Shown: piece by piece, positions 1 through 51,800 of the stretch
Layout: each line of letters opens with the position of its first letter
How positions within the stretch are numbered: the first letter of the stretch is position 1
Source of the DNA: Mobula hypostoma
Lineage: Eukaryota
Assembly (NCBI RefSeq): GCF_963921235.1
Contig: NC_086107.1
Span: 96,412,001-96,476,000, forward strand
Length of the DNA: 64,000 nucleotides
Reading direction: 5' to 3'
The notes under the pieces: model-generated
The model's input: only the letters and a program-made list of their open reading frames with translations
Databases searched by the model: none
What the model was told of the DNA's origin: nothing
Program-made: the position numbers and the translations under genes

Positions 1-3000
1 TCCTTCGATGGATAAATCTGTACCTACTCGGGCATTACCGAATAAGTCGGCTACTCTTATCAATTAGTTTTTGATTGATTCTGTAATCTCCGAAATCTGG
101 AGATCCCAAGGATAAAGAATTATCTTTCTTTTCAAATGTACATCACACTTATTCTAGGATTGACTATTTTTTATAGACTCTTGTTTAATCCCATCTGTAA
201 TTGAGTGTAACTATGATATCATTGCCATATCTCATCATGCACCATTGAATCTCAATCAAGCTATGGGATATACCTTTTAATACTAGACAATGGCGTTTTA
301 AATCCAACTTACTTCAAGATTCAGATCTCATCAAATTTATTAAGGATCAGATTGACCTTTTTTTTAAACTAATACTATGGATGAAATTCCCAGTGGGGTT
401 ATATGGGACACTTTTAAAGCTTATATCCGTGGTCAGATCATTGCCTACTTGGCTGGATTGAAAAAACGCACTAAGAATGAAATACTTGTGTTGACTGATA
501 AGATTAAAGACAGTGATAAACAATATGCCACTGCTCCTAATGAGGAGCTTTACAAACAGAGAGTTGAACTTCAAATGGAGCATAGTTTACTCTTAACATA
601 GTCAATAGAAAATTAACTAATGAAAACAAGTGAGTTTTATATACAGTGATAAATCTGGTAAATTATCAGCCAAACAATTAAAAACAGCTTCGGTTAAACT
701 TCAAATTACTAAGATTCCTAAACCTAATGATACTTTAACAGTTGATCATGATGAGATTAATAAATCTTTCCAAGAATTTTATACATCTTTATATCAGTCA
801 GAATTTCCTCATGATCCTAGGGGGATGCATGACTTTTTAAGGAAATTGAACTTCCCGAAATTAACGCCCGAAGAACGTTTAAAGTTAGAAACACCTATTA
901 CAGATGAAGAAATAGTGGGTGCTATTTCTTCAATGAATTCTGGCAAATCACCCGACCCAGATGGCTATACAGCAGAATTTTTGAAGTTTTTTTCTTCTGT
1001 TCTTTCTCCCCAGTTGTGCAGCTTTTAGAGATGCAATTATTATAGGTAAACTACCACAATCATTTTATGCAGCCTCTATTTCCTTAATTAAAAAAAAATA
1101 AGGATCCTACTGAATGTGCATCATATAGACTGATACCCTTATTGAATGTTGATTCAATATTTTTTCCTAAAATATTAGCATCTAGGTTAGAAAATGTATT
1201 ACCTCAAACTATTTCTGCGGATCAAACTGGATTTATTAAAAATCATTATTCATCTTTTAATATTAGAAGATTAATAAATATTATTTATACTCCTTCACCG
1301 AGAACTCCAGAATGTGTTATTTCATTAGATGCTGAGAAACTTCTGACAGAGTTGAATGGCCAAATTTATTTACTACGCTTGAGAAGTTTAACTTTAGCCT
1401 GATATTTATATCCTGGATTAAACTGATCTATCATACTCCCTTAGCTTCGGTTTTAACTAGTAATCAAAGATCTCCCTTTTTTCGATTATTTCGTGGCACT
1501 AGGCAGAGTTATCCTTTAAGTCCTTTATTATCTGATACTGCTTTAGAACCTTTAGCAATTGCTATTCGAAATTCACCAAATATTTTTGGTATTACTCATG
1601 GGAAAGAGATACATAAGTTATCATTATATGCAGATGATTTACTATTATATATTTCTGACCCAGAAAAATCCATTCCTGCAACTTTATCCTTGTTGGATAA
1701 GTTTAGTAAGTTTTCTGGTTACAAACTGAATCTTAATAAGAGTGAACTTTTTCCGTTAAATATGATGGTTCCAAACTATAAATGTTTACCATTTAGATTA
1801 GTTACTGATCACATTACTTATTTGGGAGTTAAAATTACTAAGAAGCATAAGGATTTATTAAAGGTTAATTTTTTTTAGCCTTATGTGATCAGATTAAAGG
1901 TTTGATTACAAAATGGTCACCAATGTTTTTGTCATTAATTGGTTTGATCAATGCTGTTAAGATGATTATTTCACCTAAGTTTCTATATTTATTTCAAGCA
2001 CTGCCATTTTTTTAATTCCGAAATCTTTTCTTGATAATGTTGATTCAAAAATTTCCTCATACATATGACAGAATAAATATCCTAGACTAGGTAAAAGATA
2101 TTTACAGAAGCCCAAAAAGGAGGGTGGCTTAGCATTGCCATACTTTAGATTCTACTATTGGGCGATCAATATTCGTTATTTAAAATTCTGGACATGGAAT
2201 TGGGACACAGCTTCAAGTCCACAATGGGTTAATCTTGAATGCAATTCTGTTTCAGGATTTTCATTGGGTTCTATTCCAGGGACCCCACTTCCTTTTGACT
2301 TTTCTAAATTGGACAAACAAATGGATAATCCAATAGTTAAATACACTCTTCGAATATGGTTTGTTTCAAAATTTTTTTGGATTGAATCAATTTATTTTAG
2401 CAAGCCCTATAATATCCAACTTTCTTTTTCATCCCTCTTTTTTGGATCAGGCATTTTTGGTCTGGAAAACAAAAGGTATAATATGTTTTTCTGATTTATT
2501 TTTAGATAATTGTTTTATGTCTTTTGAACAATTATCTAATAAACATAATTTACCTAAATCACTTTTTTTTTTAGATATTTACAGATTAGAAACTTTAAAT
2601 ACTGTTCTTACTACCTTTCCGATTTCATATTCTACTGATATAATGGGAAAATTTTTGGATTTAAACCTTTTTCAGAAAGGTTCAATAGCAATTATTTATA
2701 ATACGATAAGGAAAATAAATCCAGATGTTTCCAATACAATTAAGAATGACTGGGAAAGGGAACTTAAGCTTACCTTACCTACTCAGAAATGGCAAAAAAT
2801 TTTCCAACTAGTTAACTCTTCCTCTATTTGTGCTAAACATGCGTTGATACAGTTTAAAGTTGTACATAGGGCTCATATGTCTAAGGATAAATTAGCTCGT
2901 TATTACTCTCATATAAACCCTGTATGTGATAGATGTCATTCTGAGATAGCCTCATTAACTCGTATGTTTTGGTCTTGCCCTTTATTGAAGAAATATTGGG

Positions 3001-3612
3001 ATGATATTTTTGATATTATTTCAACTGTCTTGAATATTGATTTACAACCTCATCCTATTACTGCCATCTTTGGTTTACCAATGATAGAAAAACATCATTT
3101 GACCTCTTCAGCTTGTCAGATGATTGCTTTTGTTACTCTAATGGCTAGAAGATCTATACTATTGAATTGGAAAGAGATTAGTCCTCCAAATACATTTCAT
3201 TGGTTTTCTCAAACTATATCTTGCTTAAATCTAGAAAAAAATTAGAAGTGTCATTTATGACTCATCTATTAAATTTGATGAGACTTGGAGACTATTTATT
3301 CAATATTTCCACATGATGTAAAAGCCCTTTTTCTTTCCCTTAGTTTTCTTTTAGTTTGGGTAGATTAGTTTTTTTTCCTAAGGGGATATATTTTTATTCT
3401 TTTTCTGTTTTTTTATGATATTTTTGTATTTTAGGTATACCCTTTATATATTTTATTGTTAATTTGTGAGATTTTGGGAGGTTTACTAATTATGTGTTAC
3501 CTGACTGTATACTTTTATAATATAATTATTAATTAATACAATCCCAATCGCTCTGTATTTATTTTTTGTAATGTGTATGATGTTGAAACTAATAAAAAGA
3601 TTTAAAAAGAAA
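1..3612 (+). mobile_element. Degenerate L1 LINE (ORF2 EN-RT-CCHC with frameshifts, 3' UTR); runs off the window start and is inserted in a Gypsy pol
   Basis: ORF pieces SGKSPDPDGYTAEF, DQTGFIK, ISLDAEK, YADD-coding TATGCAGATGAT (~1627) and CDRCHSEIASLTRMFWSC. AT-rich 3' UTR with AATAAA and an A-rich tail at ~3591-3612. Homologous to the L1 at 29963-35638. Confidence 0.92.
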
Positions 3613-4929
3613 AGAATCGAACTCTCCACCTACAACTATGACATCATGTACAGGCCTGGGAAGCTCAATGAGCCCTCCGATGCCCTATTCCAGGGAACGT
3701 GCGTCAACACGCAAATCGACCGGTTATACGCTCTATATGCAGATCTTTGCCACCCGGGGGTCACCCGGCTTTTCTACTTCGTGAAAGCCCAGAACCTGCC
3801 TTACTCCCTTGAGGAGATCAGGACGATGACCAAGGACTGCCAAGTCTGCACAGAGTGCAAACCGCACTTCTACCGACCCGAAAAGGCACAACTAATCAAG
3901 GCCACTTGCCCCTTTGAGCGACTGAGTGTCGACTTTAAGGGCCCCCTTCCCTCCACTGACGGCAATGTGTACTTTCTTAACATAATCGACGAGTACTCAC
4001 GGTTGCCCTTCGCCATCCCCTGCCTCGATACCACTACCACATCAGTCATAAAAGCCCTGCACAAGCATTTCACTCTGTTCGGATACCCATGCTATATCCA
4101 CAGTGACAGAGGGTCCTCGTTTATGAGTGACCAGCTGCACCAATATGTGCTGGCTAGGGGTATTGCAACTACTATGACTACGAGCTATAATCCCCGGGGG
4201 AATGGACAGGTGGAGAAGAAGAATGCCACGGTGTGGAAGGCCACACTCTTATCCCTCAGGTCAAAGGGACAGCTGGTCTCCCGCTGGCAGGAAGTCCTTC
4301 CTGAAACACTCGACTCCATCAGCTCCCTGTTATGCACGTCCACCAATGCCACCCCTCATGAGCGACTCTTTTCTTTTCCCAGGAAGTCGAGCACCTGGAC
4401 CACTCTACCAACTTGGCTGATGTCCCCGGGGCCAGTGCTGCTCTGCAAACATGCAGGAGCAATAAATACTCCCCGATGATCAAGATGGTTCACTTACTTC
4501 ATGAGAACCCCCAATATGCCTACGTGGTTTTATCTGATGGGCCGGAGGACACAGTCTCCATCCGCGACCTGGCCCCACAGGAGCACCGGGCCCCTACCTT
4601 GAACACTCCATGGTGACTATTAACCCTGTACCCACTGATGTATGTACCCACGAGACACCGCACACTCCAAGCCCTACACAGACACCACACACTTCCATAC
4701 CGGACACGACACATGCACGAGGGATTACCAACGCCTAACGTGCTGGCACTTCAAGTCAGGCCGGAGCCAGCACAACCACCGTCACTGGTGCAATCACCAC
4801 CGGTGCTATGTAGATCACAGCGATGGACTCCACCGCCTGATAGACTTGACCTGTAAATACACTTGCTTTAAAATATTGTCAGTCACTTCACCCCGCGGGA
4901 CTCTCTTTTTTTAAAAATGGAGGGGCGAA
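3613..4929 (+). mobile_element. Gypsy/Ty3 LTR retrotransposon 3' internal region (RNase H end, integrase, polypurine tract), degenerate
   Basis: RIELSTYNYDIMYRPGK, zinc-binding LCHPGVTR...CQVC, and catalytic core SVDFKGP / IHSDRGSSF / GNGQVEK. Purine tract GGAGGGGCGAA immediately precedes TG at 4930. Confidence 0.9.
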
Positions 4930-5266
4930 TGTGGTAAACCAGGGGTCCCCAACCTTCTTTGCACTGCGGACCGGCTGACCTGGGGGGTGGGTAGGGTTGC
5001 CAACAGACAAGAGTAGCAGTCAAGTACGTTGTTTACCCCAAGAGACTACAATCACCATGAAGCCTTGCGTGGGCACCAAGGCACATGCATGATTTGCGCA
5101 TGCGTGTACGTGCCGATTTTTTCTACAAATCGTTTTTGGCGATTCTGTTGGGGGGGGGTGTTAATCACGACCGGAATATAGGTGATAAGTGGCTAATACA
5201 CTCAATATCGTTTCTAAAAGGGTTTATCTAACGAATTTAATATTAAACACAGCGCACATTTTCCTC

Positions 5267-5493
5267 AAACAACAGGAATTCTGCAGATGCTGGAAATTCA
5301 AGCAACATACATCAAAGTTGCTGGTGAACGCAGCAGGCCAGGCAGCATCTATAGGAAGAGGCGCAGTCGACGTTTCAGGCCGAGACCCTTCGTCAGTCCT
5401 GACGAAGGGTCTCGGCCTGAAACGTCGACTGCGCCTCTTCCTATAGATGCTGCCTGGCCTGCTGCGTTCACCAGCAACTTTGATGTATGTTGC
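5267..5493. repeat. Perfect 95-bp-arm inverted repeat of a Penelope-like terminal segment containing a minimal hammerhead motif
   Basis: 5302-5396 is the exact reverse complement of 5399-5493 with a 2-nt spacer. Flanked by the direct repeat GCACATTTTCCTC (5254-5266, 5492-5504). The same sequence follows a GIY-YIG-end ORF at 63242-63737. Confidence 0.88.
5394..5431 (+). ncRNA. Putative minimal type I hammerhead ribozyme motif (Penelope-type)
   Basis: CAGTC-CTGACGA-AGG(GTCTCGG)CCT-GAAA-CG-TC-GACTG: core CUGANGA/GAAA/UH, stem I CAGTC:GACTG, short stem II and a palindromic ACGT stem III. Confidence 0.6.
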
Positions 5494-5554
5494 ACATTTT
5501 CCTCGCATGAATATAGCGATATTATCAACTATCAGGGGAGGACAGGGGAGCTTG

Positions 5555-5755
5555 AAGTGTTGAACGAACTTCCAGTAGAAGTGGTAGAGGCAGGTTCGAT
5601 ATTATCATTTAAAGAAAAATTGGATAGGTATATGGACAGGAAAGGAATGGAGCGTTATGGGCTGAGTGCAGGTCAGTGGGACTAGGTGAGAGTAGCGTTC
5701 GGCACGGACTAGAAGGGCAGAGATGGCCTGTTTCCGTGCTGTAATTGTTATATAG
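5555..5755 (+). mobile_element. CR1 LINE 3' terminal fragment within the hAT element
   Basis: NELPVEVVEAGSILSFKEKLDRYMDRKG followed by the CR1 3' UTR (GAAGGGCAGAGATGGCCTGTTTCCGTGCTGT). Confidence 0.75.
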
Positions 5756-6564
5756 TTATAAAAGTAAGTCAACAGCATCATAACATTTTAAGTAACGTTT
5801 GGATATTAAACACACAGCACATATTTTCCCCGTATGAACAAATAAAATCAATGCAACACACCAATATCGCTGAATTAGTAGGAGCCCTGGGCTTGTTTCC
5901 CTGCCACAACACGGTCCTATCGAGGGGTGATGGGAGACAGCGATACTCGAAGGGGGGTTCTTATTGCCAGTCTATTACGCAATTTGGTTTTCGTTGCATT
6001 CATTGCAGAGATATGTTGGAAATGGAAGCAACGTTTTCAGTGCTTTCGTGGCTATCTCAGGATATTTAGCCTTGACTTTGAGATCCAGAGTGTCGGCAGA
6101 GATGTTATGTCAAATGTACTTTTCAGCCCGCCGTCATTTGCAACCTTGAGGAGTTGATCATCTTCCCGCGCTGACATGGATGACGCACGGGTAATGACCT
6201 CGCATGCGTAATGGCTCAACAGTGGGCATGACAAGGAATGAGGAAAGGTGCAGCTGACTCCTATCGCCAAATCATATCGTTTCCTCACGGCCCAGTAGCA
6301 CATGCTTTGCAGGCCGGTGATTGGGGACCGCTGTGGTAAACCATGTATATAGGTTGTAAGTGGGTTACCTGTCTGGACATGCCTGGACACGCCCCTCTGC
6401 TGACTGCTCCTGTGGCTCCTCCCACAGACCCCTGAATAAAGGCAATTGTGTCACTGCTCCTCCCACAGTCCAGGACAGACATACAGCATGGACGTGGATC
6501 CATTTTACTGTTAATAAAAGCCTTGCAGTATTTACTCTACTTCCAGTCTTTTAATAGTGCATCA

Positions 6565-7472
6565 CCCTCCCCCACCCCTTTATCTTTCCCCTTACTGGTT
6601 TTTCACCTGGCACTTACCAGCCTTCTCCTTCCCACCCTCCCCCCACCTTGAGACCTGGGTGTCATTATACACCAGTCATTGAAAGTGGGCATGCAGGTAC
6701 AGCAGGCGGTGAAAAAGGCGAACGGTATGCTGGCATTTATAGCGAGAGGATTCGAGTACAGGAGCAGGGAGGTACTACTGCAGTTGTACAAGGCCTTGGT
6801 GAGACCACACCTGGAGTATTGTGTGCAGTTTTGGTCCCCTAATCTGAGGAAAGACATCCTTGCCATAGAGGGAGTACAAAGAAGGTTCACCAGATTGATT
6901 CCTGGGATGGCAGGTCTTTCATATGAAGAAAGACTGGATGAACTGGGCTTGTACTCGTTGGAATTTAGAAGATTGAGGGGGGATCTGATTGAAACGTATA
7001 AGATCCTAAAGGGATTGGACAGGCTAGATGCGGGAAGATTGTTCCCGATGTTGGGGAGGTCTAGAACGAGGGGTCACAGTTTGAGGATAGAGGGGAAGCC
7101 TTTTAGGACCGAGGTTAGGAAAAACTTCTTCACACAGAGAGTGGTGAATCTGTGGAATTCTCTGCCACAGCAAACTGTTGAGGCCAGTTCATTAGCTATG
7201 TTTAAAAGGAAGTTAGATATGGCCCTTGTGGCTACAGGGGTCACGGGGTATGGAGGGAAGGCTGGGTTCTGAGTTGGATGATCAGCCATGATCATAATAA
7301 ATGGCGGTGCAGGCTCGAAGGGCCGAATGGCCTACTCCTGCACCTATTTTCTATGTTTCTATGTTTCTATGTTTCTTTCCTGACAAAGGGTTCTGGCCCG
7401 AAACGTTGACTGATCATTTCCACAGATGCTGCCCGACCTGCTGAGTTCCTCCAGTGTGTTGTGAGTGTTGCT
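6565..7472 (+). mobile_element. Penelope-like 3' region remnant (6565-6648 and 7377-7472) interrupted by CR1
   Basis: Pyrimidine-rich tract and CTGACAAAGGGTTCTGGCCCGAAACGTTGACT...GATGCTGCCCGACCTGCTGAGTTCCTCCAG, resembling 63300-63737. Confidence 0.6.
6649..7376 (+). mobile_element. 5'-truncated young CR1 LINE (open ORF2 C-terminus)
   Basis: ORF 6679-7272 contains LLQLYKALVRPHLEYCVQFWSP...RGDLIETYKI...FFTQRVVNLWNSLP and is followed by a (TTTCTATG)n tail. Confidence 0.93.
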
Positions 7473-7574
7473 AATTACTGTTCTTTATTTTTTAAAAAGG
7501 TGTAAAAGTACTTTGGTTTAAACAGAAGATTGAAGCTATATTTCCAGACGAAACTTAGCTGGAAGTACATCTCC

Positions 7575-8045
7575 TCCGGCAACATCCACAGCATGTACAA
7601 TGGCATTAGGAAGACCCTCAGAACATCTCAAAGACTAATCCACCCAAGTCCCCCGCAGGCGATGTCATTGCTGAGTGCGGAAAATAGTTGGAAAGATGGG
7701 CCGAACACTACCAGGAGCCAAGACCAGCCCTGCATTATAAGATATCTGAAAGCAGGGGACATTGACTAAACAACCTGGGAAGTTGTGGCAGCCAACTGCA
7801 GCAGCTGTTTAAAGACCATCAAGGCAGGCGTAAAGAGTGAGCAGAAGAGAGAACAGCAACAGGAAGCAAAGCGAGAGTGCAAACAAAGGGAAGCATTGAC
7901 ATCAGCACCTCCATAGCCTGGCAAAACATTCACTTGCAGAAACTGCAGCAGGACCTGCTGCTCCAAACTTGAATACTGCAACCCTATAATGGACATAGTG
8001 CACACTCCACTGTTCTTTGAGACAGGCGGATGCAATCATCATCAA
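7575..8045 (+). mobile_element. Internally deleted, degenerate RTE-clade LINE
   Basis: SGNIHSMYNGIRK...LERWAEHY is joined directly to C-terminal LKAGDID..TWEVVAA...FTCRNCSRTCCSKL; short (ATC)n tail. Confidence 0.6.
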
Positions 8046-8186
8046 TTGAATTAATAAGTTTTTCAGAAGACTGAATTTGTACTTTCACCAACATAAAACT
8101 TGTATTTTCAACTTTATTTTTCACAATATATGGTGTTAAGACAACACCCCCCCCCCCTTATTGGGCACAATACAATACAGCAGTTA

Positions 8187-11100
8187 CATGTTGATAATAA
8201 GTATTCTCTCTCAACCCCATTGAATCACAGTGGATTTAATCTGGCCTATTTTGTCATGATCAACAGAAAAAGACTTGTGTCAAAGTGAAAACAGATCTCT
8301 ACAAAGTGATCGAAATGAATTACAAATATAAAACAAAATAATTGATTGCTTATGTATTAACCCCTTTAAATTGAGATCACCTGTGTGCAGTCTGACTAGT
8401 AAAAATACACCAATATCTGGAAGGTCCAACTGCTGGTGAATCAGTATAACTGGTGCACAGGTCTGGGCATGGTTTAAAAGGTAGAGTTTCATGGGAACTC
8501 GGCTATAACCAGCGTATCAATCGTCTATTGGAGAGCAAGGAAGGTTCTGGCATAAAAGGTAGGCAATGCCTAGTGGAACAGTGAAAGGAGCAGTCTTCGT
8601 CAGAGTAGTAGGGCTTTAGCTCATTTGGGCTTCGTTGAGGTAAGTGGGTAAGTGGACTTTGTTTTTCCTTGCATGTTTTGAGGTATAGCGAGCATGTCTG
8701 TAGGGTTAGTACTTAGCTCTGGGTGTCAGATGTAGGAACCTTCCAGTCTCCCAGATGGCTATATCTGTGCCAGATGCACCAAGATACAGCTCCTGAGCTT
8801 GTGTTAGGGATCTGGAGCTGCGGCTTGATGACCTACAGCTTATAAGGAAAGTGAGCAGGAGATAGATAGGAGCTACAGGGAGTTAGTCACCCGAGGCTGC
8901 AGGAGTTAGGTAAGTGGATGACTGTCAGGGAAGGGAAGGGAAGAGCTCAGATAGTAGAGAGCAGTCCTATGGCCATGCCCCTCAGTAATCATTACCTCAT
9001 TTTAGATGCTGCTGCGGGAATGCGGGGGGAGGGAACAGAGGACGACGATAGCAACCAGGTCTCTGGCACCGAGCCTGGTTCCGTAGTGCAGAAGGGAAAG
9101 AGGAAGATGAGGAATACCGAAGTCATAGGGGATTTCATAGTGAGGGGAACAGACAGGTGGCTCTGTCAGCCTGATAGAGATAACTGCATGGTGTATTGCC
9201 TCCCAGATACCAGGGTACGGGGTGTCTTGGATCGGGTACAGAGTATTCTGAAGGGAGAAGGTGAATAGCCAGAAGTCTTGGTATATGCTGGTACCAATGA
9301 CATAGGTAGAAAAAGGGAGGAGGCCCTGAAGAGAGAATTCAGGGAGTTGGGTAGGAAGCTGAAAAGCAGGGCCTCCAGGGTAGTAATCTCAGAATTGCTG
9401 CCTGTGCACATGCTAACAAGCGCAAGAATAGCATGATCAGGCATATTAATTCCTGGCTGAGAGACTGGTGTAGGGGGCAGGGCTTCAGATTCCTGGATCA
9501 TTGGGGCCTCTTCTGGGGGAGGTACGACCTGTACAAAAAGGATGGGTTACACCTGAACCCAAAGGGGTCCAATATCCTAGCAGGTAGGTTTATTAGAGCT
9601 GTTAGGCAGGGTTTAAACCAATTTGGCGGGGGGACAGGAACCAGAGTGATAGGGCTGAGGAAGGGGAAAACAGAAATAAATCAAAGGTAGCATGCAATAG
9701 AGATAATAGAAAGGACAGGCAGGAGATGAGGCATAATCACAGCTAGTAACTCATTACAGGGCAATAGAGGCGTGGTGCAATTAAAACAGAAAGCAACAAA
9801 TAACTGAACTGAAAGTGTTATATTTGAATGCACATAGCATTAAGAAATAAAACAGACGATCTTGAAATTTAGCTACAGATTGGCAAGTATGACTTTGTGG
9901 TCATCTCTGAAACTTAGCTAAAGGATGGCTGCCATTGGGAGCTGAATGTCCAAGGATACAGTGTATCGGATAGATAGGTTAGTAGGCAGAGGGGGTGGTG
10001 TGGCACTGTGTTTAAGAAATGATATTAAATCATTAGAAAAGTATGATTATAGGATCAGAAGGTATAGAGTCTCTATTAGTTGAGTTAAGAAATGGCAAAG
10101 GATAAAAGGACGCTAATGGCAATTGTATACAGACATCCAAACAGCAGCTGCAGTATAGATTACAAATTAGAGCAGGAGATAGAAAAGGTGTGTCAGAAGG
10201 GTAATGTCCTGACGATCGTTGAGGATTTTAACACGAAAGTGGATTGGGGAAAACCAGGTCAGTACTGGACCTCGAGACAGAATTTGTAGAATGTCTAAAA
10301 ACAGCTTGTTGTTGAGCCCACTAGGGGATCGGCTGTGCTGGATTGGGTGTTGTGCAATGATCCAGAGGTGATAAGGTTAAGGAACCCTTAGGAAACAGTA
10401 ATCACAATATGATAAGCGTTCACTTTGAAATCTGAGAAGAAACTAAAATCCAATGTGTCGGTATTTCAGTGGAATAAAGGAAATTACAATGGCATGAGAG
10501 GGGAACTGTCCAAAGTTGACTGGAAAGGGACACTAGCAGGAAGGACAGCAGAGCAGCAATGGCTGGAGTTTCGGCAAAAAATGACGGAACTACAAGACAG
10601 ATATATTCTAAATAAGAAATTTTTGAATGGAAGGAGGACACTACTATGGTTGACAAGTGAAGTCAGAGCCAAAGTAAAAGCAAAAGAGAGGGCATACAAG
10701 GAAGCCAAAGCTAGATTGGGAAGCTTTTAAAAACTTGCAGAAGAAAACAAAGAAGGTCATGAGGAAAGAAATGATGAATTATGAAATGAAGCTGGCGACT
10801 AATAACAAAGAAGATATTAAAAGCTTTTTTAAGTATATAAAGGGTGAGAGTCGAAGGTAGATATAGGACCAATAGAAAATAACGCTGGAGATATTGTAAT
10901 GAGAGACGCAGAGATGGCAGAGGAACTGAATGCGCATTTTGCAGCAGTCTTCACAGTGGAAGACATCTGCAGTATACTGGATATTCAAGAGTGTCAGGGA
11001 AGTGAACTATATGCAGTGAAATTTACGACTGAGAAGGTGCTCAGGAAACTTAATGGTCTGAGGGTGGATAAATCTCTTGAACCTGATGGAATGCACCCTT

Positions 11101-12675
11101 GGGTTCTGAAGGAAGTAGCTGGAGAGACTGCAGAGTCATTAACAATGATCTTTCAAGAATCGATAGATTCTGGCATTGCACTGGATAACGGGAAAATTGC
11201 AAATGTTACTCCACTATTTAAGAAGGGTGGGAGGCAGCAGAAAGGAAACTATAGACCCGTTAGCCTGACATCAGTGGTTTGGAAGTTGTTGGAATCGATT
11301 TTGAGGGATGAGATTACGATGTACCTGGAAGCACATGACAAGATAGGCCAAAGCCAGCATAGTTTCCTGAAAGGAAAATACTGCCCGAGAAACCTACTGC
11401 AATTTTTTGATGAAATTACAAGCTGGGTAGACAAAGAAGATGCACTAGATGTGGTGTACTTGGATTTTCAGAAGACTTTTAACAAGGTGCCACACAGGAG
11501 GCTACTTAGCAAAATAAGAGCCCATGGAATTACAGGGAAGTTACTAGCATGGGTGGAGCGCTGGTTGATTAGCAGAAAGCAGAGAGGGAGAATAGGGATC
11601 CTATTCTGGCTGGCTGCCAGTTACCAGTGGAGTTCCACAAGCGTCCGTGTTGGGACCGTTGCTTTTTACAATGTATGTCAACGATTTGGACTATGGGATT
11701 AATGGATTTGTGGCTAAATTTGCCGATGACAGAAAGACAGGTGGAGGAGTGTGTAGTGTTGAGGAAACAGAGATTTAGATAGTTTTGGGGAATGGGCAAA
11801 GAAGTGGCAAATGAAATAGTGTTGGAAAGTGTATGGTATTGCATTTTGGTTGAAGAAATAAACAGGCAGACTATTATTTAGATAGAGAGAGAATTCATAA
11901 TGTAGAGATGCAAAGGGACTTGGGAGTCCTTGTGTAGGACACCCTAAAGGTTAACCTCCAGGTTGAGTTGGTGGTGAGGAAGGCAAATGCAATGTTAGCA
12001 TTAATTTCTAAAAGTGGAGAATACAAGAGCAGGGATGGCATGTTGAGGCTCTATAAGGCACTCGTGAGACCACATTTGGAGTATTGTGTGCAGTTTTGGG
12101 CTCCTTATTTGGAAATCCTGGAGGAAAACCTGATGCAGTCTGCAAGAGAATGGCGACTCAGGAGATTTGTTTTCCAGCAAGACAATGACTCTAAGCGTAA
12201 AGCCAAGGATACACAGGAGTGGTTTAAAAACAAAGATAATGTCCTGGAGTGGCCAAGTCAGAGCCCAGACATCATTCTAATTGTGAATTTATGGCTGGAC
12301 TTGGAAAGGGCTGTCCACTCACTATCCTCATGCAATCTGACAGAGCTTGATCAGTTTTGTAAAGAAAAAAAATGGGAAGAAATGCAGTGTCCAGATAGGA
12401 TAGAGAACTATCCACACAGACTCAAGGCTGAAATTGCTGTCAAAGGTGCATCTATTAAATACTGACTTGAAGAGTGTGAGTAATTATGCGATCAATTGTG
12501 TCTAATAATTATAATAAATTTAGATCAATTTGTGGAAATTTGTTCTCACTTTTACATGTTTTTGACCCTGACAACAGGGGAAAAAAGCCAAATTAAACCC
12601 ACTATCATACAATGTTACAAAACAATAAAACATGAAAACTTCTGCGCAGGGTAAATACTTTTAATAGGCACTGTA
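8187..12675 (+). mobile_element. Tc1/mariner transposon remnant (left TIR region ~8187-8450; transposase end and right TIR 12111-12675), interrupted by CR1
   Basis: FVFQQDNDSKRKAK...VLEWPSQSPDI..I.NLW at 12111-12465. 8218-8370 aligns with the reverse complement of 12465-12615. Ends ...AATAGGCACTG/TA. Confidence 0.8.
8450..12110 (+). mobile_element. Near full-length degenerate CR1 LINE (ORF1 Zn-finger/esterase, ORF2 EN-RT), 3' end deleted
   Basis: ORF1 motifs VIGDFIVRG, AGTNDI and KKDGLHLN. ORF2 motifs GNYRPVSLTSVV, VVYLDFQKTFNKVPH, KFADD and LYKALVRPHLEYCVQFWAP, fused directly to Tc1 sequence at 12111. Confidence 0.88.
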
Positions 12676-14199: not shown

Positions 14200-14328
14200 C
14201 ATAAGGCATCAAAGGATAGGCTAACGTTATTGCTTGGGGGTAACTCATCTGGGGATTTCAAGCTCAAGCCTTTGCTTGAGAATCGCTCCCTAAATCTGAG
14301 GGCACTTTGCCGTATCATTAAGGCATCA

Positions 14329-42190: not shown

Positions 42191-43066
42191 GGCTACATCC
42201 ACACTAGACCGGATAATTTTGAAAACGCCGGTTTCGCGTAAAAGCCACAGGCGTCCACAGTAGGAGTTTTAAAAAATACCTCTGTCTACATTAAAACGGA
42301 TATTTGGGTGCATCTCCTCCTACTGGGCATGCACAGGACACACAGAAAACAAGCGAAGAGGAAACAGTATACTTGTTGTGCGTTTGTCCAGTTACAGACT
42401 AGAAAAACTTAAAAGGAAATTGCCAAACAAAAATCTTGGTGCGCGTTTGTCCAGAAACATTTCCTACAGCCATAGTCTCTTCACCGATGAAAGGGACAAC
42501 AGCTTCAACTAAATGTAATAAGGCTTGCTACTGGGCAAAAGTGAAATTTGCTGTTACCTCATTTGTTTACCTTTACTTTTGCCATGTCTTTGTGTATTAT
42601 TTTGCTGTATTTAACATGTGCAATAAAAGGAGTTACTGGGCAAAAGTGACAATTGCATCTATTGAATGTTTGCACAAACAATACATTAATAAAGCACCTT
42701 GTTAAATGTATAAAACATGTCTGCATCAGTGTTATCTTGTATTTCCATACAATGTTACATTAGGCTGTTACACATCCATTGTCAGATGTTGTTGTGGTGT
42801 TGGAGGTTGCGTTCAAGAAAACAATGAAATGCTGCGCTGCCGCCACCATTTGTTGCAGCACGCCATGACAGCGGTTTTAAAATAGCTGGTTACCCTGTAC
42901 ACACTAGGCCGGATATTAGGCGTTTTCAGATTTATTCACTCTGGAGAGCGTTTCTGAAAATCTCCCTGTTCAGGGGAGGAAAATGCCGTTTCCGTGTCGA
43001 CAGAAGGTCAAAACGAAGAGAAAAAGCTTTGGTTACGGATTTATCCAGTCTAGTGTGGACGCAGCC
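42191..43066. mobile_element. Non-autonomous PIF/Harbinger-like DNA transposon
   Basis: TIRs GGCTACATCCACACTAGACCGGATAA / TTATCCAGTCTAGTGTGGACGCAGCC followed by TTAA. Absent from the paralogous positions at ~50130 and ~53670. Confidence 0.78.
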
Positions 43067-43402
43067 TTAATTGCTTTGAGCAAAATGCCAGCTAAGTTTT
43101 GCAACAGAACCAACAGCTCTGCAGTGCAGCGAAGCTCCAACCAGACTACCAAATGCTCACCTTCCTCGTTCCCTTCCAAGCCCCACGTTGCATGCACTGT
43201 TCCCTCACAGCCATCCTCACCCACAGCCCCAGGCCTTCCAGCCTGTTAGAGTGAGTTTTTTTGGGTAGATGATTTGTTTACACTTAAATGACTTTGGCCA
43301 CCAGACTTCTATTTGACAAAGTACTGTGGATTGAGTCCACAACAATGCGCTTCCTAAAAAGGTGTGAATACCAGATGCTTCTGGCACCATACTTTCACCT
43401 GA

Positions 43403-44795
43403 TGCTGTAGTTTCGAAGACAGTATTATCTATACATTATAAATATTAATTGTCTTCTATGTTAGCAGGGGAAATGCCAAATAAATGTATCGTAGACTTAA
43501 CTTGCATTCCTAAAGGCTGTGGATACCAACCCCGACATGTTGGCGTCGGAAGGAAAGGATGGTGTGACATTTTGTATGTAGCTTCAATAGGAAGCATTGT
43601 CTATGCATTGACTATAACTTTTTATGTAGCGATTGCCTTTGTGTTTAGCATATAAATATCAAGCCCACATTGAGCTAGCAGACCTTTCTACGGAAAGCAT
43701 CTCCGTCCGTATGGTGCCTGCTGTACCTTGGTTTCGAATAAAGAAGCTGCTTTGTATCTACCAGAAACTGTCTCTCCAGTGATTTCATTCACGCTACAAC
43801 ATTTGGTGTCAGAAGTGGGATACTTCGTGACTTGTCGTGTGGCCAGCATTCCTAGCAGTCTAAGTTGGTGAGTATTTTTCTAAAATAACACTCACACTTG
43901 GATCAGTTCGGTCGGTGGTAGACGGGAACACAAAGTATCATGAACGTGGAGAGCTGAACTGGTAGATATAAAGCAGTGTATGCGTGTGCACGTGTGTTTA
44001 TGTAAGTGAGGAATCACTGCACGTTAACTTGGTGAGACTTGGACCACCAGTTGCGAAAGGTGGTAACCAATGGTACGGTTTGAGACGCCAGAGTAGGGGC
44101 GTGTATACTCGTTCGGGGAGTTGTATTTTAGTGTACGCGTTTGCAAGTGTGATGCAAAAGAATACAGCAGGCATCATGAGTTCGAGTACTCAGAAGTGGC
44201 AGACTGTGGAATACATACTCTGCGGTTTTAAGTATGTACTGTTTAACTGCTACCCATCTATGATTTTTGCGTAGAGTGGGAATTAGTATGGAGATAGCTC
44301 AGGGAGAGGTTTTACCCAGATAGATCTACCAGAATGGCACCTATTGAGGTCAGGCAACGTCAGGTTGAGAACCCTGATGATCCGAGCCAGCCCTTGACCT
44401 TGATTACGACTATTCATAAGCCCTTCACCTCCGGGGAGAAACAAAGCATTTTGTCCCAGTTGCCCTCACTTAAAGTCGCCTGTGGGAATTCAGGATTCTG
44501 GCGCAAGCTCAAGGAAATGGTTGAAATTCACCAGATGCACCCTAAAGATATACATGTGTTAGTGAAAGCCAAGTGCCCGAGGAATATGTGGGACAGGATG
44601 GCCCAGGGGGTGCGGGATGGTACATGGGCAACTACCGAGAGCGCCAGTAATGAAGAAAGATCTCGCTCTTTTAAAGGGCAAGTGCAGCAGCGGCTGGAAG
44701 GAGGTGATAGTAGCTGGGGAACGATAATGGCAGTGATTCAAAAAGCTGATGAGACAGCCACGGATTGTGCAGAACATATATATCGAGCATGAGGA
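43403..44795 (+). mobile_element. Endogenous retrovirus 5' portion: LTR 43403-43801, tRNA-Leu PBS 43804-43821, leader and gag fragment
   Basis: Inverted termini TGCTGTAG...CTACAACA with TATAAA and AATAAA. PBS TGGTGTCAGAAGTGGGAT lies 2 nt after the LTR, splice donor GTGAGT at 43868, and ORF 44334-44792 ends in an MHR-like IQKADETATDCAEHI. Confidence 0.78.
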
Positions 44796-45261
44796 GTATT
44801 CAGCCTTCAGCTGGAGAAGCAGGCAAACACACCCATTGCTACTTTTTACCAATATGGAGACTGGGAAAGTCTTTCCTCTTTCCCAAGGCTTCACCTATCC
44901 AATATTGAGAATTTAGTAATTTCCTGCCTTCATGTTAAATACAAGCTAAAGAGATACCAGCTCTGCAGGACACAAAAACTGCAAACAAGACCACGCAATT
45001 CTTGCCCTCCTCCTTTCCTATGATGAACTCTCTGGACTAAAGTCAGTGTCTGAAAGAATCTTTGCAAAGGTGTGACCCTCCAACAAGGCAAGGGAGACCT
45101 TAGAGGACCTAAACACACTGTCCAGAGAAAATCATCACAATCCCATGCAGATGTAATCTCAATACAGAACAACAGAATCTATACCTCTGGTCCTTACCCT
45201 TGGGTAAGAGTTTTAGTTTTGATGGGGACAGGAAGGTAGGGAGTGCGTTCAGATTGACAAA

Positions 45262-47087
45262 GGCCTTTGACAAGGTGCCACACATAGTTAAGAAAGCACA
45301 GCAACGCTCATTTTTCCTTAGGACGCAGAAGAAAGCTGGTCTACCTGAACAGATGCTGGTGACCTTTTACCGCTGCACCACAGAGAGCAACTTAACATAC
45401 TGCATCTCTGTGTGGTATCTCAGTTGTACAGCAGCTGATAAGAAAGCACTTCAGCAGGCCGTCTCTAGCGCACAGAAGATCATCAGGACACAGCTCCCAG
45501 CCCTGGAGGACACCTACAGCTCACGCTGCCTAAGGAAAGCTACAAGCATCTGTAAGGACAATACACACCCATGCAATCATCTGTTTGAACTTCTTCCATC
45601 TGGCGGATGTTATAAGATTTTCTATGCCCACACTTCTAGACTGAAAAATAGCTTTTTCCCCAGAGCTATAATTGCTCCGAACCAATCGATCAAGCATCAT
45701 CCATAATTTGTTATATTGCTACTTTAATACTGGTTTTATGGATGTCATGCACCTGAGTTGTGCTTTTGTACTGCTGAACATTGCTCGTACTGGCTGGTTA
45801 CTTGATTTTATTTATTGTTTATTTATTTTATTTGTTGTTTTATAGCATTGAGTACAAGAGCTGCAAACTCATTTTCGCTGTATTGGAGCATGACAAATTG
45901 TACTATGCAATGACAATAAAGATATTTCATTTCATAAGGCTGCTTACCAAGTTAAGAGCCCATGGTATCACAGGAAAATTACTAACATGGTTAGAGCATT
46001 GGCTGATTGGTAGGAGGCAGCAAATGGGAATAAAAGGATCCTTTTCTGGTTGGCAGTGACTAGTGGTGTTCTGCAAGGGATGGTGTTGGAACCACTTCTT
46101 TTTATGCTGTCTATAAAAGATTTAGATGATGGAATAGATGGCTTTGTTGCCAAGTTTGCAGATGATATGAAGATTGGTGGAGGGGCAAGTAGTGTTGAGG
46201 AAACAGGTAGGATGCAGAAGGACTTCGACAGATTAGGAGAATGGACAAAAAAGTGGCAAATGAAATACAATGTTGGAAAATGCATGGCCCTGCACTTTGG
46301 TAGTAGAAACAAATGTGCGGACTATTTTCTGAACAGGGAGAAAATCCAGGAACCTGAGATGCAGAGGGACTTGGGAGCCCTTGTGCAGAATACCCTGAAG
46401 GTTAACTTGCAGGTTGAGTCGGCGGTGAGGAAGGCAAAGGCCATGTTAGCATTATCATTTCAAGAGATCTAGAATGCAAGAGCAAGGATGTGATGCTGAG
46501 GCTTTATAAGGCACTGGTGAGGCCTCACCTTGAGTATTGTGAACAGTTTTAGTTGGGCCTCTCATCTTAGAAAAGATGTGCTGGCATTGGAGAGGGTCCG
46601 GAGGAGGTTCACAAGGATGATTCCAGGAATGAAGGGGTTATCATACGACGAACTTTTGATGGCTCTGGATCTGTATTCACTGGAATTAAGGATAGAGGGG
46701 ATCTCATTGAAACTTTTTGAATGTTGAAATGCCTAGACAGAGTAGCTATGGAATGGATTTTCCCATGGTAGGAGAGTCTGGGACAAGAGGGCACAGCCTC
46801 AGGATAGAGGGGAGCCCTTTCAAAACAGAGATGCAGAGAAATTTCTTTTGCCAAAGGGTGGTGAATTTGTGGAATTTGTTGCCACATGCAGCTGTGTAAG
46901 CCAGTTTGTTGGATGTATTTAAGGCAGAGATTAATAGGTTCTTGATTGGACATGGCAAAGATTACAGGGTGAAGGCCGGGAACTGGGGTTGAGGAGGAGA
47001 CAAAAAAAGATCAGCCATGATTGAATGGTGGAGCAGACTATATGGGCCAGATGGCCTAATTCTGCTCCTATGTCCTATGATATTACA
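45262..47087 (+). mobile_element. 5'-truncated CR1 LINE containing a nested Rex1-like 3' fragment (~45285-45935)
   Basis: KAFDKVPH, then the nested insert KKAQQRSFFLR...FYRCTTESNLTYCISVWY, then RLLTKLRAHGITG...KFADDMKIGG...FFCQRVVNLWN and a CR1 tail. GACAAA occurs at both junctions; the empty site is at ~55025. Confidence 0.85.
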
Positions 47088-48667
47088 GACAAAAAAAAAA
47101 TCAAAAGCTACTTAGTTACACTTAACCATACCCAGCCATACACCTACATTTACAGTGATGTCAAGTGGCTGATCACTCAATTTGCCCGCAAATATCAACC
47201 CAACTGAAATGACGTATTTCAGCACCCCTGCTCTGCTGCATAACTGACCCCAGTTCCCAGGGATGTGAAGTTGTCCCCTTCCCCACTGCTGTCCTACAAC
47301 TTCTCACTAGGCACAGATTTCTGTAACATTCTCACTTCTGCAGCAAATGCAGAATAAGAATTAGCCAAGCAGAGGCCACTGCAGTTGCTGTCTGAAAAGT
47401 CAGTGAAAAGCACAGACTGAACATAAAACAAATTAGGGTGGCAATCTGACAACCTGTGGAAACCAAGTTTGACTTCAATCTTTAAAATCCAGCAAAACCA
47501 CTCAATTATAATAGCACAGAAAATAAAAAAAACAGGTGTGAAAGGCTTCAACTCACTCTCCAGCTGGGAAAGTACAAACCCACTGTTGCTTTTCACAAAT
47601 ATCTGTCGATTGGAAAACCCTTTCTCTTTTCAAAGATCTCATATCAACCAAATTTTGGGAACTTTGCAAGGAGAACGCCACCTCAGCAGGACATGGGAGC
47701 TTCAAATAGACCACGCAATTCTCCAGTCTTTGGATCAACATTTCCAGGTGCTGGAGTATGTCAGAAAAACTGCAAATTGAGCAAGGGAGACAATACAGAG
47801 CAGCTAGAAAAATGAGCACTGAGCCACACCATTGGGGAAGCTCTGCCTACCTAGCCTCATCCATCCCCTCCGTCAAGCAGCAGTTGACCACTCTCACTCA
47901 CCATGAACTTGGATTGTGATGCACCTTGCAAAGGGAGCATTGTGATGAAGTTTTGCACCTGCACCACCCAGCCCAGCCCCTCCTCAGTAACACATTCAGG
48001 CATCGGGAAGGGCAGAACCCCTGCCCTTCTCCACTGTCCCCGATGCCTACACATCAGCAGTGCAGTGCATTGCCCCCATCTCCAGCCAGAAAATAAACTT
48101 CCAAAGAATTTCTTCAGGTGGCAATGCCAGATAATCATTTTCTAAGGCAACTAATTTAAAAGTGTAATGGTTCTTCTTGCAAAGTTTAAACACAGTTGGC
48201 AGAACAACACAAGGTGCGTTACCACCACCTACTGAACTAGAGTGTGGTGCAAACAAACAGGAAGTATTCCCACTAAAATCCCTTCACCCACAAAACTCAA
48301 ATAATATCAAAAAGTCTCATGCTTTTCATAAAGTGATATCCTAACAAATTTTCCGTGTTCAACTGTCTGTCCTAAATATCTCAATTTAGCAATTAGACAT
48401 TTCCTCTGAACTTCATAGGAATTGCATTCAAACAATACATGCTGCACTATTTATTGACAAGTGCACTCCCTACAAATGCCGAATCGTGCATATCAATTCT
48501 GAACAAGGAATTATTGTCCAATACGTAAACGCGTGAATACCACTTCTTCTGTCCTTTCTTTTCTTTATCCCAACTTCATTGTCACAGTGATTGAAAAGAC
48601 TTTTTAATTAAGGTTTTCATCTCCCCTTTATACAAAGGTACGTTTACATCCTGAACTTTACTGATTG

Positions 48668-48830
48668 ACCATAAGACAATAGGAGCAGAATTAAGCCATC
48701 TGGCCCATCAAGTCTGCTCCACCATTCAATCATGGATGATCCTTTTTTCAATCTCCTTCTCAACTCCAGTTCCTGGCCTTCTCCCCGTAATCTTCAATGC
48801 CATGTGCAATCAAGAACCTATCAATCTCTG
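48668..48830 (-). mobile_element. Short CR1 3' tail fragment
   Basis: Reverse-complement similarity to the CR1 3' UTR at 46930-47080. Confidence 0.7.
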
Positions 48831-51800
48831 ATTGTTTGGCTAGAATGCCTACACTTCCCTTCCTTCAACCCTAACGTGTCACACTGAGTCCTACCTGATC
48901 TGGCTCGTACTTTGGCAGCAATATCACAATTGCCAAGTCGCCGTGGTTCACGTCCAGCTCAATTTCTCTCCAGCAAACATCACCCTGATGACAGCAGCCT
49001 TCTTGCACAGCACCGCCAATTGTGAATTTGAGGATTTACATGACCAGACCGATGGCACAATTTCAATGGAGCCGCCTCCTTTCCACTAAAATATTTCCTG
49101 TTTCACAAGGGAAGCTGCAATCAATACTAATTTTATTTCAAAGCGCCCCTGTCAACACGAGCGCAGGCACTAACATTCGAAACTCATCTTTGTGTTGCCT
49201 ATTGTGGGTAACCCGAATCTTCCATTCCTAAAACCAAACCATCTTTAACAGGTTCCAAACCAAAATGGTGAAAGGTAAAAATGAACGCACACTGAACATC
49301 TGGTGAACCAGGCTTTTATAAATTGCTGTTTTCTTCTTAAGTCACACAGTCTGTTATGAAGACTTGGGGAGCCTAAAAGCACAGGGTATAGGTTTAAGTA
49401 AGGGCTTGCTCATGCGAAGTTCTACACGTTATTCTCATTGTTACCAAAAAGGATAGGGGGAAAAAAGTCAGCCCTCTAAATTAGAGGGCAACTTTATCAG
49501 CCTGAGATTAAAGGCGCAAAGCTGATTGAAATCTGCCATTTTAAGGTACACCAGTCCTTAGCCAATTCACTATGGGTCCTGTTCCCACAATGCAGAACCA
49601 ACCTCGGTGCCCAGGGATCTTAAGCCAGCCCCGCCCCACCTGCGAACTGCATCACTGGTCCACACTACCGATTCCTCTGTGATACCTTTGTTTCTGCAGC
49701 TGCTGCATAACCACAGTCACCTCAGCAGTGAGAAGAAGAACAAGATGGTGTCTCGAACCGAAATGTCAACTCTATATTGCTCTCCATAGATGCTGCCTGA
49801 CCCTCAGAGCCCCAGCATTTTTTCTGTGTTATTCTGGCACTGCTAAATTATTTGGTACGTATAATAGTCAAGATAGGAGGATTAACTGAACTGTTTAAAA
49901 AGTGGGAAGAACTGTCCTATAATCTGTGCAGACACAAAGTCTACGGCTCCAATCTTTAAAAACCAGCCTCCGTGAGGGAAGCTCATCCACTGAAATACTG
50001 TAATTGCACATTAAATAAAGCATGAGCTGTGAACGGCTGCACTTCAGCCTTCAGCTTGAAGAGCACACACCCATTGTTGCTCCTCCCCCCCCACCGTAAG
50101 ACAAGATTCTTTTATTCCCTTTCAAAAAGGCCTAATTGCTAACCGAGCTTTGAGCAAAATGTGAACTAAAGTCTGCAACAGAACCAATAGCTCTGCATGG
50201 CAGAGGTGATCCAACCAGAATACTAAACACTCACCTTTCTGCTTCCCTTCCAAGCCCCTGCTGCACAAACTGTTCCAACCTCTTCCCCCCCCACCAACAG
50301 CCTCAAGCCTCCACCCACTAGTGAGCCCTGTTCCCAACAATCACACAGGCCCTATCTGCTGGACTGGGGCTGAGTTCACAAAGAGTTACACAACTCTGTA
50401 CAGTTATGCATGATGGTCAACGAGGTCCAAAACTGACATGGAAATTGGGGGGGGTGGGGGGGGAAGAGGAGGGAGGAGGTTTGGGCACGAGCACAGAGGG
50501 TATTAGTGGAAGGATTTTCTGCCGATTGATTGCAGTTTGTATGTTTGTGACTAATGCGGTAATGTAAGGCTGGTTGTGGCAGCTCCATCACCTGTATTAT
50601 CCACTTGATCGTGGACACGGCAGGTACAATGAGACAGTTTGCAGATGATGCAGATGTTGACAGCATTATGATGACGAAGAATGTCGTCACCAGGGCTGTG
50701 GTATCGTACGGATCAGTTGGAAAGTTGTCCAAGTGCAATAGTATGTCCGGCAGCTGTGAGGTCATACGCTCTTGGAAGTCCGGTAGCGATGGGGTAAGTA
50801 GGGTGTAGTTTGACAAAAGTGGTGACACAGCTCTAAGGAATGAGGCAGACTCACCTTCGTGGGCCAGCTCACTGAATGGAATGCCACATTGCAACTTTGA
50901 GACAATGGCCCGGCCACACCTGGGAAATCTGCGTACTGTGCTGCTCGCTACACTGTAGCAAGGGCACAGGCAAGATTCACCGGGATGCTGCCTGTACTGG
51001 CAGACTTTTGCTCTGGGTAGAGACTGGATAGGCTGCACTTGCTTCCCATGGAGACAAGGGTATCCGGGGGTTGCCCTGACACAAGGATATAACAATACAG
51101 GAGACTGGGATAGGGCAGATGGCCAAAATCCACTTCCCATGCCAGAGGTAGCATAAAATCAAGAGGATATTGAGGTGACAGGGAGGAGACTGAGGCAGAG
51201 AATGTGAAACAAGCAGGCAATTGACCAGTACAAACTACGTGCAGGCGCAGACATACAAGTTTAAATCAGCATTGGGTTCGGTGCAAAAACACAGTTTATA
51301 GTCATTCCTGAGCTCGACTGTTGTTGCTCATTACCGAGAAAGGAAAGGAGAGAATCAGTCACGTCTCTCTGTTCTGAAGGGGCAATCTCACCAGCCTGAG
51401 AGACAAAGCACCACAGGTCAATGAAATCTGCCACTTCAGGTACATTGGTTCCTGAGCAGAGCAAAAGGGAGGCATTCGTGGAAACTATTCAAGGGACAGC
51501 AGGCAAATACACACCTGCAGAGCAAAAAGGCGTAAATGCCAAATCTCAAGGGCCCAAAGTTCCTGCACTGCAAAACAGGGTCCAGTGCCCTGGGACTTGA
51601 AGCTGTCGCTTCACCAGAGTCCACACTACAGATTAAGCTGTGATGCTCCCCAATTTCATCAAAGTAACCCCACCTCTGCATTTAGGCATTGGTGATGACA
51701 ACCACACCCCTTCTCCACTGTCTCCGATGTCCCAATACACATCAGCAGTGCAGTACATTTCCCACATCTCCAGCCGCAGAATAATTTTCTAAAGATTTTG

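Follow-up and report, generated by a model that had tools for sequence, protein, structure and literature searches.

A window of 64,000 nucleotides in the genome of the ray Mobula hypostoma (C45:96412001-96476000, part of a 3.48-Gb assembly; positions are counted from the window start, negative ones lying to its left) belongs to a domain of about 158 kb in which nearly all transposable elements (TEs) share one orientation, and a spliced, non-coding transcript of the minus strand, which we call T, starts at the right boundary of this domain and points into it. Because the locus has a discrete promoter at one edge, 5' exons that are spliced, TEs captured in antisense and few sense insertions, all of them small or near the distal end, and no minus-strand coding exon was found, the account that we rank first is a one-strand source of PIWI-interacting RNAs (piRNAs) of the flamenco type known from Drosophila. 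We hold it tentatively, at slightly less than an even chance, and piRNA production is its conjectural part.

We analysed the window together with 200 kb of flanking DNA on the left and 50 kb on the right. Neither the window nor the resulting 314 kb contains an N, and the GC content of the window is patchy, from 0.32 to 0.60, with a GC-rich block at 14-30 kb. A Pfam scan of 283 stop-to-stop open reading frames (ORFs) of at least 70 amino acids (aa) on both strands of the window placed all TE domains between 1 and 46.5 kb on the plus strand, and the sole minus-strand TE domain that it detected was a weak RVT_1 match at 60589-60798. The 314 kb hold 182 ORFs of at least 180 aa, of which the 134 that lie outside the window and cross no locus border were Pfam-scanned in addition to the ORFs of the window (17 cross such a border and 31 lie in the window). 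We used 53 Pfam-verified TE ORFs as tblastn queries against both strands of the 314 kb and clustered the matches by superfamily, strand and distance into element groups.

By this measure the domain extends from about -100.9 kb to +57.7 kb and has sharp boundaries. It holds 41 plus-strand and 2 minus-strand element groups (binomial p 2.2e-10), against 21 and 16 in the 155 kb of flanks (Fisher test against the domain, p 3.6e-5); with weak groups removed the counts are 30:1 and 19:12 (p 0.001). The bases with similarity to TE proteins are divided in the same manner, about 80.4 kb plus against 0.6 kb minus in the domain and 49.7 kb against 43.9 kb in the flanks. Every superfamily contributes, with plus-to-minus group counts of 13:0 for CR1-like elements, 11:0 for L1, 6:0 for Tx1, 6:1 for long terminal repeat (LTR) elements and 5:1 for Tigger, or three separate plus Tigger elements against one minus. 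Of the two groups on the minus strand, one is a Tigger piece of 511 nt at -95.7 kb and the other an LTR fragment of 78 nt at -16.5 kb; together with a 161-nt CR1 tail inside the window they make up the three minus exceptions of the domain, all small or near its distal end.

The insertions range in age from very old copies with 23-40% protein identity up to a CR1 tail at 99.6% and an L1 at 98% identity to copies 170 kb away. As old and young insertions alike lie on the plus strand, the constraint on orientation is long-lasting and still acting. An earlier reading of the DNA, made from the sequence only, had described a near-complete plus polarity over about 51 kb with mostly minus elements at ~57.7-62.2 kb. 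The polarity is confirmed by Pfam and by tblastn, with 10 plus and no minus groups in 1-51300 (a split Tigger counted three times), within a domain that is much larger, and a minus-strand CR1-like element of the long interspersed nuclear element (LINE) class does lie past the boundary at 59789-61979. Its count of about 17 plus insertions was not reached: protein evidence verified about 10 independent ones in 1-51300.

We found no multi-element segmental duplication inside the domain among matches of at least 700 nt in the 314 kb. Such matches are the size of single elements, except in the Tx1 arrays and in local units at 39.7-57 kb, and segmental duplication was rejected as the cause of the polarity. 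The stretch at 39.7-57 kb is built of direct local duplicates with 67-88% identity, so the plus pieces there are not independent. Plus elements are also nested in one another, a Tx1 array and an L1 in a Tigger and an L1 in a Tx1 element at -86 to -80 kb. A high-copy 25-nt motif proved uninformative as an orientation marker, with 6 plus and 3 minus sites in the domain, several of them inverted pairs within one foldback-like element.

A spliced non-coding transcript at the domain boundary

Three coded sequencing runs (X1, X2 and X3), none on record as RNA, were mapped to the 20 kb at 44001-64000. An X1 contig of 850 nt (depth 47.2, no mismatches) joins 57227..56583 to 52488..52288 on the minus strand. 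The intron between these two blocks starts with GTAGGG and ends with AAACAG, and one G at the junction fits either side. The second block ends at another donor, CAG/GTAGGT (the slash marks the splice site), past which the contig continues for three or four letters, and the contig end at 57227 is not at an acceptor site. Depth in the exon 1 bin is 39.2 in X1 against 0.04 in X2 and 0.03 in X3, so that one of the three runs carries the signal. Repeat-free bins of intron 1 (54006-56006) have an X1 depth of 0 to 1.3; in the intron bins at 52672-54005 depth reaches thousands in all three runs, which we took to reflect repeat-derived contigs. No second copy of exon 1 at 100% exists in the assembly, where the best other copy stands at 92%, and a retrocopy origin of the spliced contig was rejected on this ground. 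Because of the splice and the sample-specific depth, we infer that the contig represents spliced RNA specific to the X1 sample and not DNA.

T has no coding capacity, its longest ORF being 56 aa in the 846 nt seen. X1 alone yields one further contig, at 47417-47645 (229 nt, depth 2.9), which also matches without mismatch but is not bounded by splice sites. The start of T coincides with the right edge of the domain: the last plus element spans 57187-57676, T starts at 57227 and the first minus element begins at 59789. T thus starts inside a CR1-like fragment, antisense to it, and points into the domain. A transcription model of the polarity makes two independent predictions, a minus-strand start at the domain boundary and an inward direction, and both were found.

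The exon of T is part of a unit of which the window holds four copies, at 41.5, 48.9, 52.3 and 56.6 kb, with a shared orientation. Further occurrences are found at C45:96.02-96.055 Mb, and contig C5 has a 1.2-kb fragment. Aligned across eight copies, the unit shows an invariant acceptor, GTGAAACAG/G, and a GT donor in seven of them; all four units in the window keep their donor sites. Reading frames are not kept between copies, and an 8-nt indel separates units. We rejected a coding reading of the unit, since its frames are not conserved, all of them contain stops and four translations had no Pfam match, and likewise its reading as a spacer of U2 repeats or a known RNA, as 36-64 kb yielded no Rfam match at E up to 1 and no tRNA.

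The sequence compared further comprised 10 kb beside an inverted paralog and 4 kb on contig C5. The module that comprises promoter, exon 1, intron 1 and exon 2 (about 5.3 kb) has an inverted duplicate at C45:96,050,151-96,054,833 with 82-97% identity. This duplicate lies 418 kb to the left and the two full modules face each other; a further fragment sits at 96.020 Mb. The first 10 kb past the inverted module hold a Tx1 fragment and an L1 nested in it, both antisense to the module. The C5 fragment (L035:1444-2637, or C5:53,510,944-53,512,137) is the only copy of the unit off C45. It is CpG-poor and covers the part of the unit that precedes the exon, together with the first ~27 nt of the exon itself; CR1-like pieces stand on its flanks. 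This fragment may be the source of the unit or a relic of an old low-copy element.

Competing explanations of the polarity

Under the account that we rank first, a one-strand TE trap would extend over about 158 kb, and the window would contain the third of it nearest the promoter. T, spliced and non-coding, would be driven by a CpG-rich promoter at ~57.2 kb and run leftwards along the minus strand into dense L1, CR1-like, Tx1/Keno-like, LTR and Tigger remnants, nearly all antisense to T, and the long precursor with its antisense TE sequence would be cut into piRNAs. Antisense insertions would be retained and sense ones lost, either because they bring no gain in silencing or because their polyadenylation signals truncate the precursor. 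Two parts of this are inferred, namely that T, or read-through from it, reaches across the domain and that piRNAs are made from it. In its boldest form, which we consider rather unlikely, this account makes the ray the bearer of a true flamenco analogue, a trap of ~158 kb whose single minus-strand precursor would supply antisense piRNAs against active L1, CR1-like, Keno/Tx1, LTR and Tigger families, with the inverted copy of the module, 418 kb away, as the possible seed of a second, convergent cluster.

Several points weigh against a piRNA source. The sequence-only reading had proposed a long minus-strand transcript, possibly from near the CpG-rich segment at ~57 kb; the X1 contig supports its start and strand, but as RNA T was seen only at 57227-52288, plus 47417-47645, within the mapped 44001-64000. 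Since no homologous exon unit lies outside 41-57 kb, T could stop near 41 kb, which would leave ~140 kb of the domain without a known transcript. That the runs are RNA is a guess by label, and the piRNA step is conjectured from the layout of the locus. The orientation control consists of the 155 kb of flanks, not of the genome. Tx1 copies 105-158 kb past the inverted module (C45:96.155-96.208 Mb) are sense to it, and a mirror domain behind that module is accordingly not supported.

Substitution asymmetry in Tx1 copies, considered as a proxy of germline transcription, also fails to help the piRNA account, as it is confounded, tracking the strand of the element and not that of the genome. The plus-strand Tx1 copy C3 shows 78 A>G against 27 T>C and 72 G>A against 36 C>T changes, and a minus Tx1 array outside the domain has a like excess of G>A (67 to 30) when read along the sense strand of the element. 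With 18 and 68 changes, the young copies C1 and C2 hold too few for the asymmetry test.

An ordinary long transcription unit is unlikely in our estimate, yet it is the main rival. T would then have very large introns and be either a long non-coding RNA or the untranslated 5' exons of a gene. Purifying selection would remove sense insertions of LINEs and LTR elements, whose polyadenylation and splice signals would truncate T, and the antisense stack would be a by-product without a piRNA role. Such a unit also fits the spliced minus-strand transcript and the coincidence of its start with the boundary. The near-empty repeat-free bins of intron 1 in X1 show that T is efficiently spliced, and the donors kept in all four in-window exon units suit a multi-exon RNA. 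It is established that LINEs and LTR elements within genes tend to lie antisense, and here, too, the TEs are antisense to a spliced RNA polymerase II transcript. However, the intronic bias in vertebrate genes is moderate, and weak for DNA transposons. The ratio of about 20 to 1 seen here goes far beyond that modest bias, and it extends to Tigger, although there is little reason for DNA transposons to be purged from introns.

The search for a host gene also speaks against an ordinary unit. No non-TE domain scored above the gathering threshold among the 283 ORFs of the window on either strand, and the scanned ORFs of at least 180 aa belong to TE families only, bar one weak FIN1 match below the cut-off. 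Between -105 and 0 kb, Pfam matched nothing in 120 minus-strand ORFs of 60-179 aa that lie clear of TE matches, out of 125 in all (the other 5 cross locus borders). Coding exons of one minus-strand gene flanking the domain were not found by Pfam, a scan that short exons can escape. The leftmost exon, whether seen or predicted, lies at 41.5 kb, and left of the domain TEs run both ways for 100 kb, with no non-TE domain among ORFs of at least 180 aa. The intron of an ordinary host gene, which the sequence-only reading had named as the alternative to its own proposal, is thus weakened by the 120 ORFs and by the non-coding nature of T, with the same limit on short exons.

It is improbable that there is no long transcript at all, with T a local RNA of at most 16 kb from the tandem unit and the co-orientation arising from insertion-side bias (target composition or replication direction), nesting and chance. 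T is documented over 5 kb only, several plus elements are nested, the Tx1 copies stand in tandem arrays and the pieces at 39.7-57 kb are direct duplicates, all of which such an explanation accommodates. It does less well with five unrelated superfamilies that share an orientation despite different integration mechanisms, with sharp boundaries of which the right one coincides with the start of T, and with a domain free of multi-element duplications whose flanks carry the same families at 21:16. Insertion-side biases of L1 are weak, not 20 to 1.

That the polarity is an artefact of collapsed or mis-oriented repeats, or of strand-biased TE detection, is very improbable: the region is highly repetitive, with near-identical tandem LINE arrays, and the tblastn queries came mostly from plus-strand ORFs, but tblastn treats the strands alike, the same queries find many minus copies in both flanks, no N interrupts the 314 kb, the RNA contig fits two parts of the window without mismatch, and the elements differ in family and age.

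Elements of the window and the Keno-like LINE family

The features of the window are collected in Table 1.

Table 1. Coordinates of the features in the 64,000-nt window (EN, endonuclease; RT, reverse transcriptase; HSP, high-scoring segment pair; a slash marks a splice site)
Feature	Position	Strand	Evidence
Co-oriented TE domain, part within the window	1..57676	+	tblastn strand profile, element counts, Pfam
L1-like LINE (EN, RT, zf-RVT)	1..3242	+	RVT_1 1088-1875, zf-RVT 2337-3242; HSP chain
LTR-retrotransposon integrase fragment	3526..4476	+	Pfam rve, E 2e-15
Young CR1-like 3' end with (CTATGTTT)n tail	6650..7376	+	Tandem Repeats Finder (TRF) 7344-7376
CR1-like LINE (GDSL-esterase ORF1, EN, RT)	8891..12111	+	Pfam GDSL 9355-9687, RVT_1 10848-11699; HSP chain
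Tigger transposase, N-terminal part	13052..14343	+	CENP-B_N/HTH_Tnp_Tc5 13052-13583; Tigger_full aa 30-285
U2 small nuclear RNA (snRNA) 5' fragment, directly before first Tx1 ORF1	14708..14839	+	Rfam RF00004, 66.8 bits
Three tandem Tx1-clade (Keno-like) LINE copies	14745..29723	+	ZCCHC3-type ORF1, Exo_endo_phos, RVT_1, zf-RVT; Pfam domains 14832-29396
Full-length L1	29916..35640	+	ORF1 297 aa (29916-30806), intact ORF2 1306 aa (31384-35301); Transposase_22, Exo_endo_phos, RVT_1, zf-RVT
Tigger transposase, DDE part, continuing 13052-14343	35779..36187	+	DDE_1 35779-36069, E 5e-12; Tigger_full aa 393-440
Predicted homologous exon, unit 1	41495..41690	-	Acceptor kept, GTGAGT donor; not seen in RNA
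CR1-like fragments	45113..46980	+	ALKBH8_N-type C-terminal piece 45113-45703, then RVT_1 46014-46469; HSPs
Short CR1-type 3' tail	48670..48830	-	Inverted match to 46925-47079, 87.6% over 161 nt
Predicted homologous exon, unit 2	48895..49097	-	Acceptor and donor kept in alignment; not seen in RNA
Exon 2 of T, observed, 201 nt	52288..52488	-	Splice sites AACAG/ and /GTAGGT; none of the three frames free of stops
Intron 1 of T, 4094 nt, GT...AG	52489..56582	-	Joint in X1 record 5 read against the sequence
CpG-rich segment holding the start of T	56401..57400	.	GC 0.51, observed/expected 0.79; contig start 57227
Exon 1 of T, observed, at least 645 nt	56583..57227	-	X1 record 5; donor CCCG/GTAGGG; 7-8 stops per frame
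Last plus CR1-like fragment	57187..57676	+	tblastn LINE_ENRT_m aa 636-810, E 7e-8
First minus CR1-like LINE past the domain	59789..61979	-	tblastn; RVT_1 60589-60798; inverted repeats I2, I4, I7, I9

The L1-like LINE at the left end of the window, whose ORF1 begins ~1.8 kb outside it, has 70% DNA identity to the full L1 at 32081-35304. This full-length L1 is 96-98% identical to a copy at -175166..-166432 (L011-L012), which is itself interrupted by a full-length minus CR1-like element with a 986-aa ORF. The 3' end of that interrupting element, at -173 kb, is 99.6% identical to the young CR1-like 3' end in the window (6650-7370). The L1 and CR1-like families both look recently active. A single Tigger is split by a nested block at 14.35-35.78 kb, which consists of the Tx1 array and the L1.

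As the sequence-only reading had it, Tigger lies on the plus strand, the Tx1 copies are not independent events, and the short minus CR1 tail near 48668 is real; the Tx1 copies form a tandem array (periods 5.2 and 4.76 kb). Its labels Rex1, RTE, Penelope, endogenous retrovirus (ERV), Tc1 and hAT could not be confirmed, as none had Pfam or relaxed tblastn support in the window, and short ORFs (45-69 aa) in 36.2-45.1 and 47-51.4 kb gave no match in 92. Two plus-strand Pfam matches, wnt (50563-50805, E 0.0045) and GPHH (52282-52518, E 0.0056), fell under the curated cut-offs and were taken as chance.

Keno is a Tx1-group LINE with an apurinic endonuclease (APE) that targets U2 snRNA genes, according to the cited part of Kojima and Jurka 2015 (PMC4640811). 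The Tx1-type copies of the ray carry APE endonuclease, RT and zf-RVT domains in ORF2 and a zinc-knuckle ORF1 (Pfam), and ~50 nt of U2 5' sequence stand directly 5' of ORF1 in the window (14708-14839, with good alignment over only about the first 52 nt), at L010:1935-2066 and, on the minus strand, at L015:4414-4545. Full-length U2 genes occur among the arrays at L009:9171-9366, L011:2223-2415, L011:4474-4646 (minus) and L008:1031-1226. This arrangement suggests that the Tx1-type LINEs are Keno-like and U2-associated. They resemble Keno, as far as the cited source describes it, in their APE and RT ORFs and in the U2 5' sequence before ORF1; unlike Keno, the array in the window sits in a Tigger and not in a U2 gene, and the U2 head may therefore travel with the element.

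The family is spread genome-wide, with 4109 first-look candidates, and is young, at 95-99% identity. A plus-strand tandem array at -200 to -178 kb (L009-L011) has a period of ~5.17 kb, four copies that are 99.7-99.9% alike, and both ORFs intact (486 aa for ORF1, 1155 aa for ORF2); the three copies in the window are 98.4%, 96.0% and 85.6% identical to an intact copy at -196 kb. A minus-strand array at -161 to -135.5 kb (L013-L015) has the same period of ~5.17 kb and five copies. Head-to-tail LINE arrays with intact ORFs are unusual.

Several other features of the region stand apart. A perfect palindrome at 5302-5493, in which a 2-nt spacer separates 95-nt arms of 100% complementarity, could be a foldback-type element or else an artefact of assembly; its arm sequence recurs at 63599-63736 and 62075-62202 and carries a motif that occurs in inverted pairs elsewhere. 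A stop-free Tigger transposase ORF (623 aa; CENP-B_N, HTH_Tnp_Tc5, DDE_1; L025:942-2810, window -39058..-37190) is nested in a plus LTR element. About 7 kb of the domain at -77.9 to -71.1 kb (L021:2100-8900) have no similarity to TE proteins and many unassigned ORFs on both strands. An LTR gag ORF at L015:7737-9392 (window -132263..-130608) carries a SCAN domain beside a zinc knuckle and an integrase zinc-binding domain. The strongest CpG island of the 314 kb (L033, +111201..+112300; GC 0.53, observed/expected 0.99) lies to the right of the TE region and is a possible host-gene promoter.

Relation to known piRNA clusters

In the parts of van Lopik et al. 2023 (PMC10643416) that bear on them, unistrand clusters of the flamenco type start from a discrete promoter, have 5' exons that are spliced, capture TEs in antisense and tolerate sense insertions chiefly near their 3' end. 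To that extent the ray locus is like Drosophila flamenco and flam-like clusters in being a TE graveyard on the order of 100 kb with elements near-totally antisense to one transcript, and like flamenco in its promoter at one end, spliced 5' exons, rare distal sense insertions, and captures both old and recent. Unlike flamenco, with its Gypsy-type ERVs, it holds mostly LINEs (L1, CR1-like, Tx1) along with LTR and Tigger elements, and its host is a cartilaginous fish. The 5' exons here are also part of a tandemly repeated unit.

Vertebrate piRNA clusters, as the cited portions of two reports present them, are mostly uni-strand but smaller and less TE-rich (PMC7618676; bioRxiv 10.64898/2026.01.28.702291), and the second of these, in the same limited measure, describes them as less well-defined and less transposon-rich than flamenco. 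One-strand transcription is the likeness between the ray locus and the uni-strand clusters that these portions give for axolotl (PMC7618676) and for zebrafish, koala and cichlid (bioRxiv 10.64898/2026.01.28.702291); unlike those, the domain described here extends over ~158 kb, is almost wholly TE-derived and stands at 41:2. The cartilaginous-fish lineage, represented by the elephant shark, has cytoplasmic piRNA pathway genes and Piwil4, according to the relevant part of PMC7618676. Outside Drosophila, Aedes aegypti has a unidirectional flamenco-like cluster, which, in the passages cited, is defined by small RNAs and its content of viral elements, unlike the locus here (PMC7161354). Among the papers listed by our literature search, judged partly by title, no paper on piRNA clusters in sharks or rays was found.

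With a mapped start, strand and splice sites, sharp boundaries and an antisense stack of 41:2, the locus is a concrete, testable target. If the piRNA reading were refuted, what remains would be a non-coding transcription unit with an extreme case of selection on orientation, itself in need of an explanation. If it were confirmed, the assembly and upkeep of one-strand TE traps could be studied in a vertebrate, together with the way in which they capture TE families that are still active. In the boldest form of that reading, unistrand master loci that are large and saturated with TEs would not be confined to insects, but would be present near the base of the jawed vertebrates.

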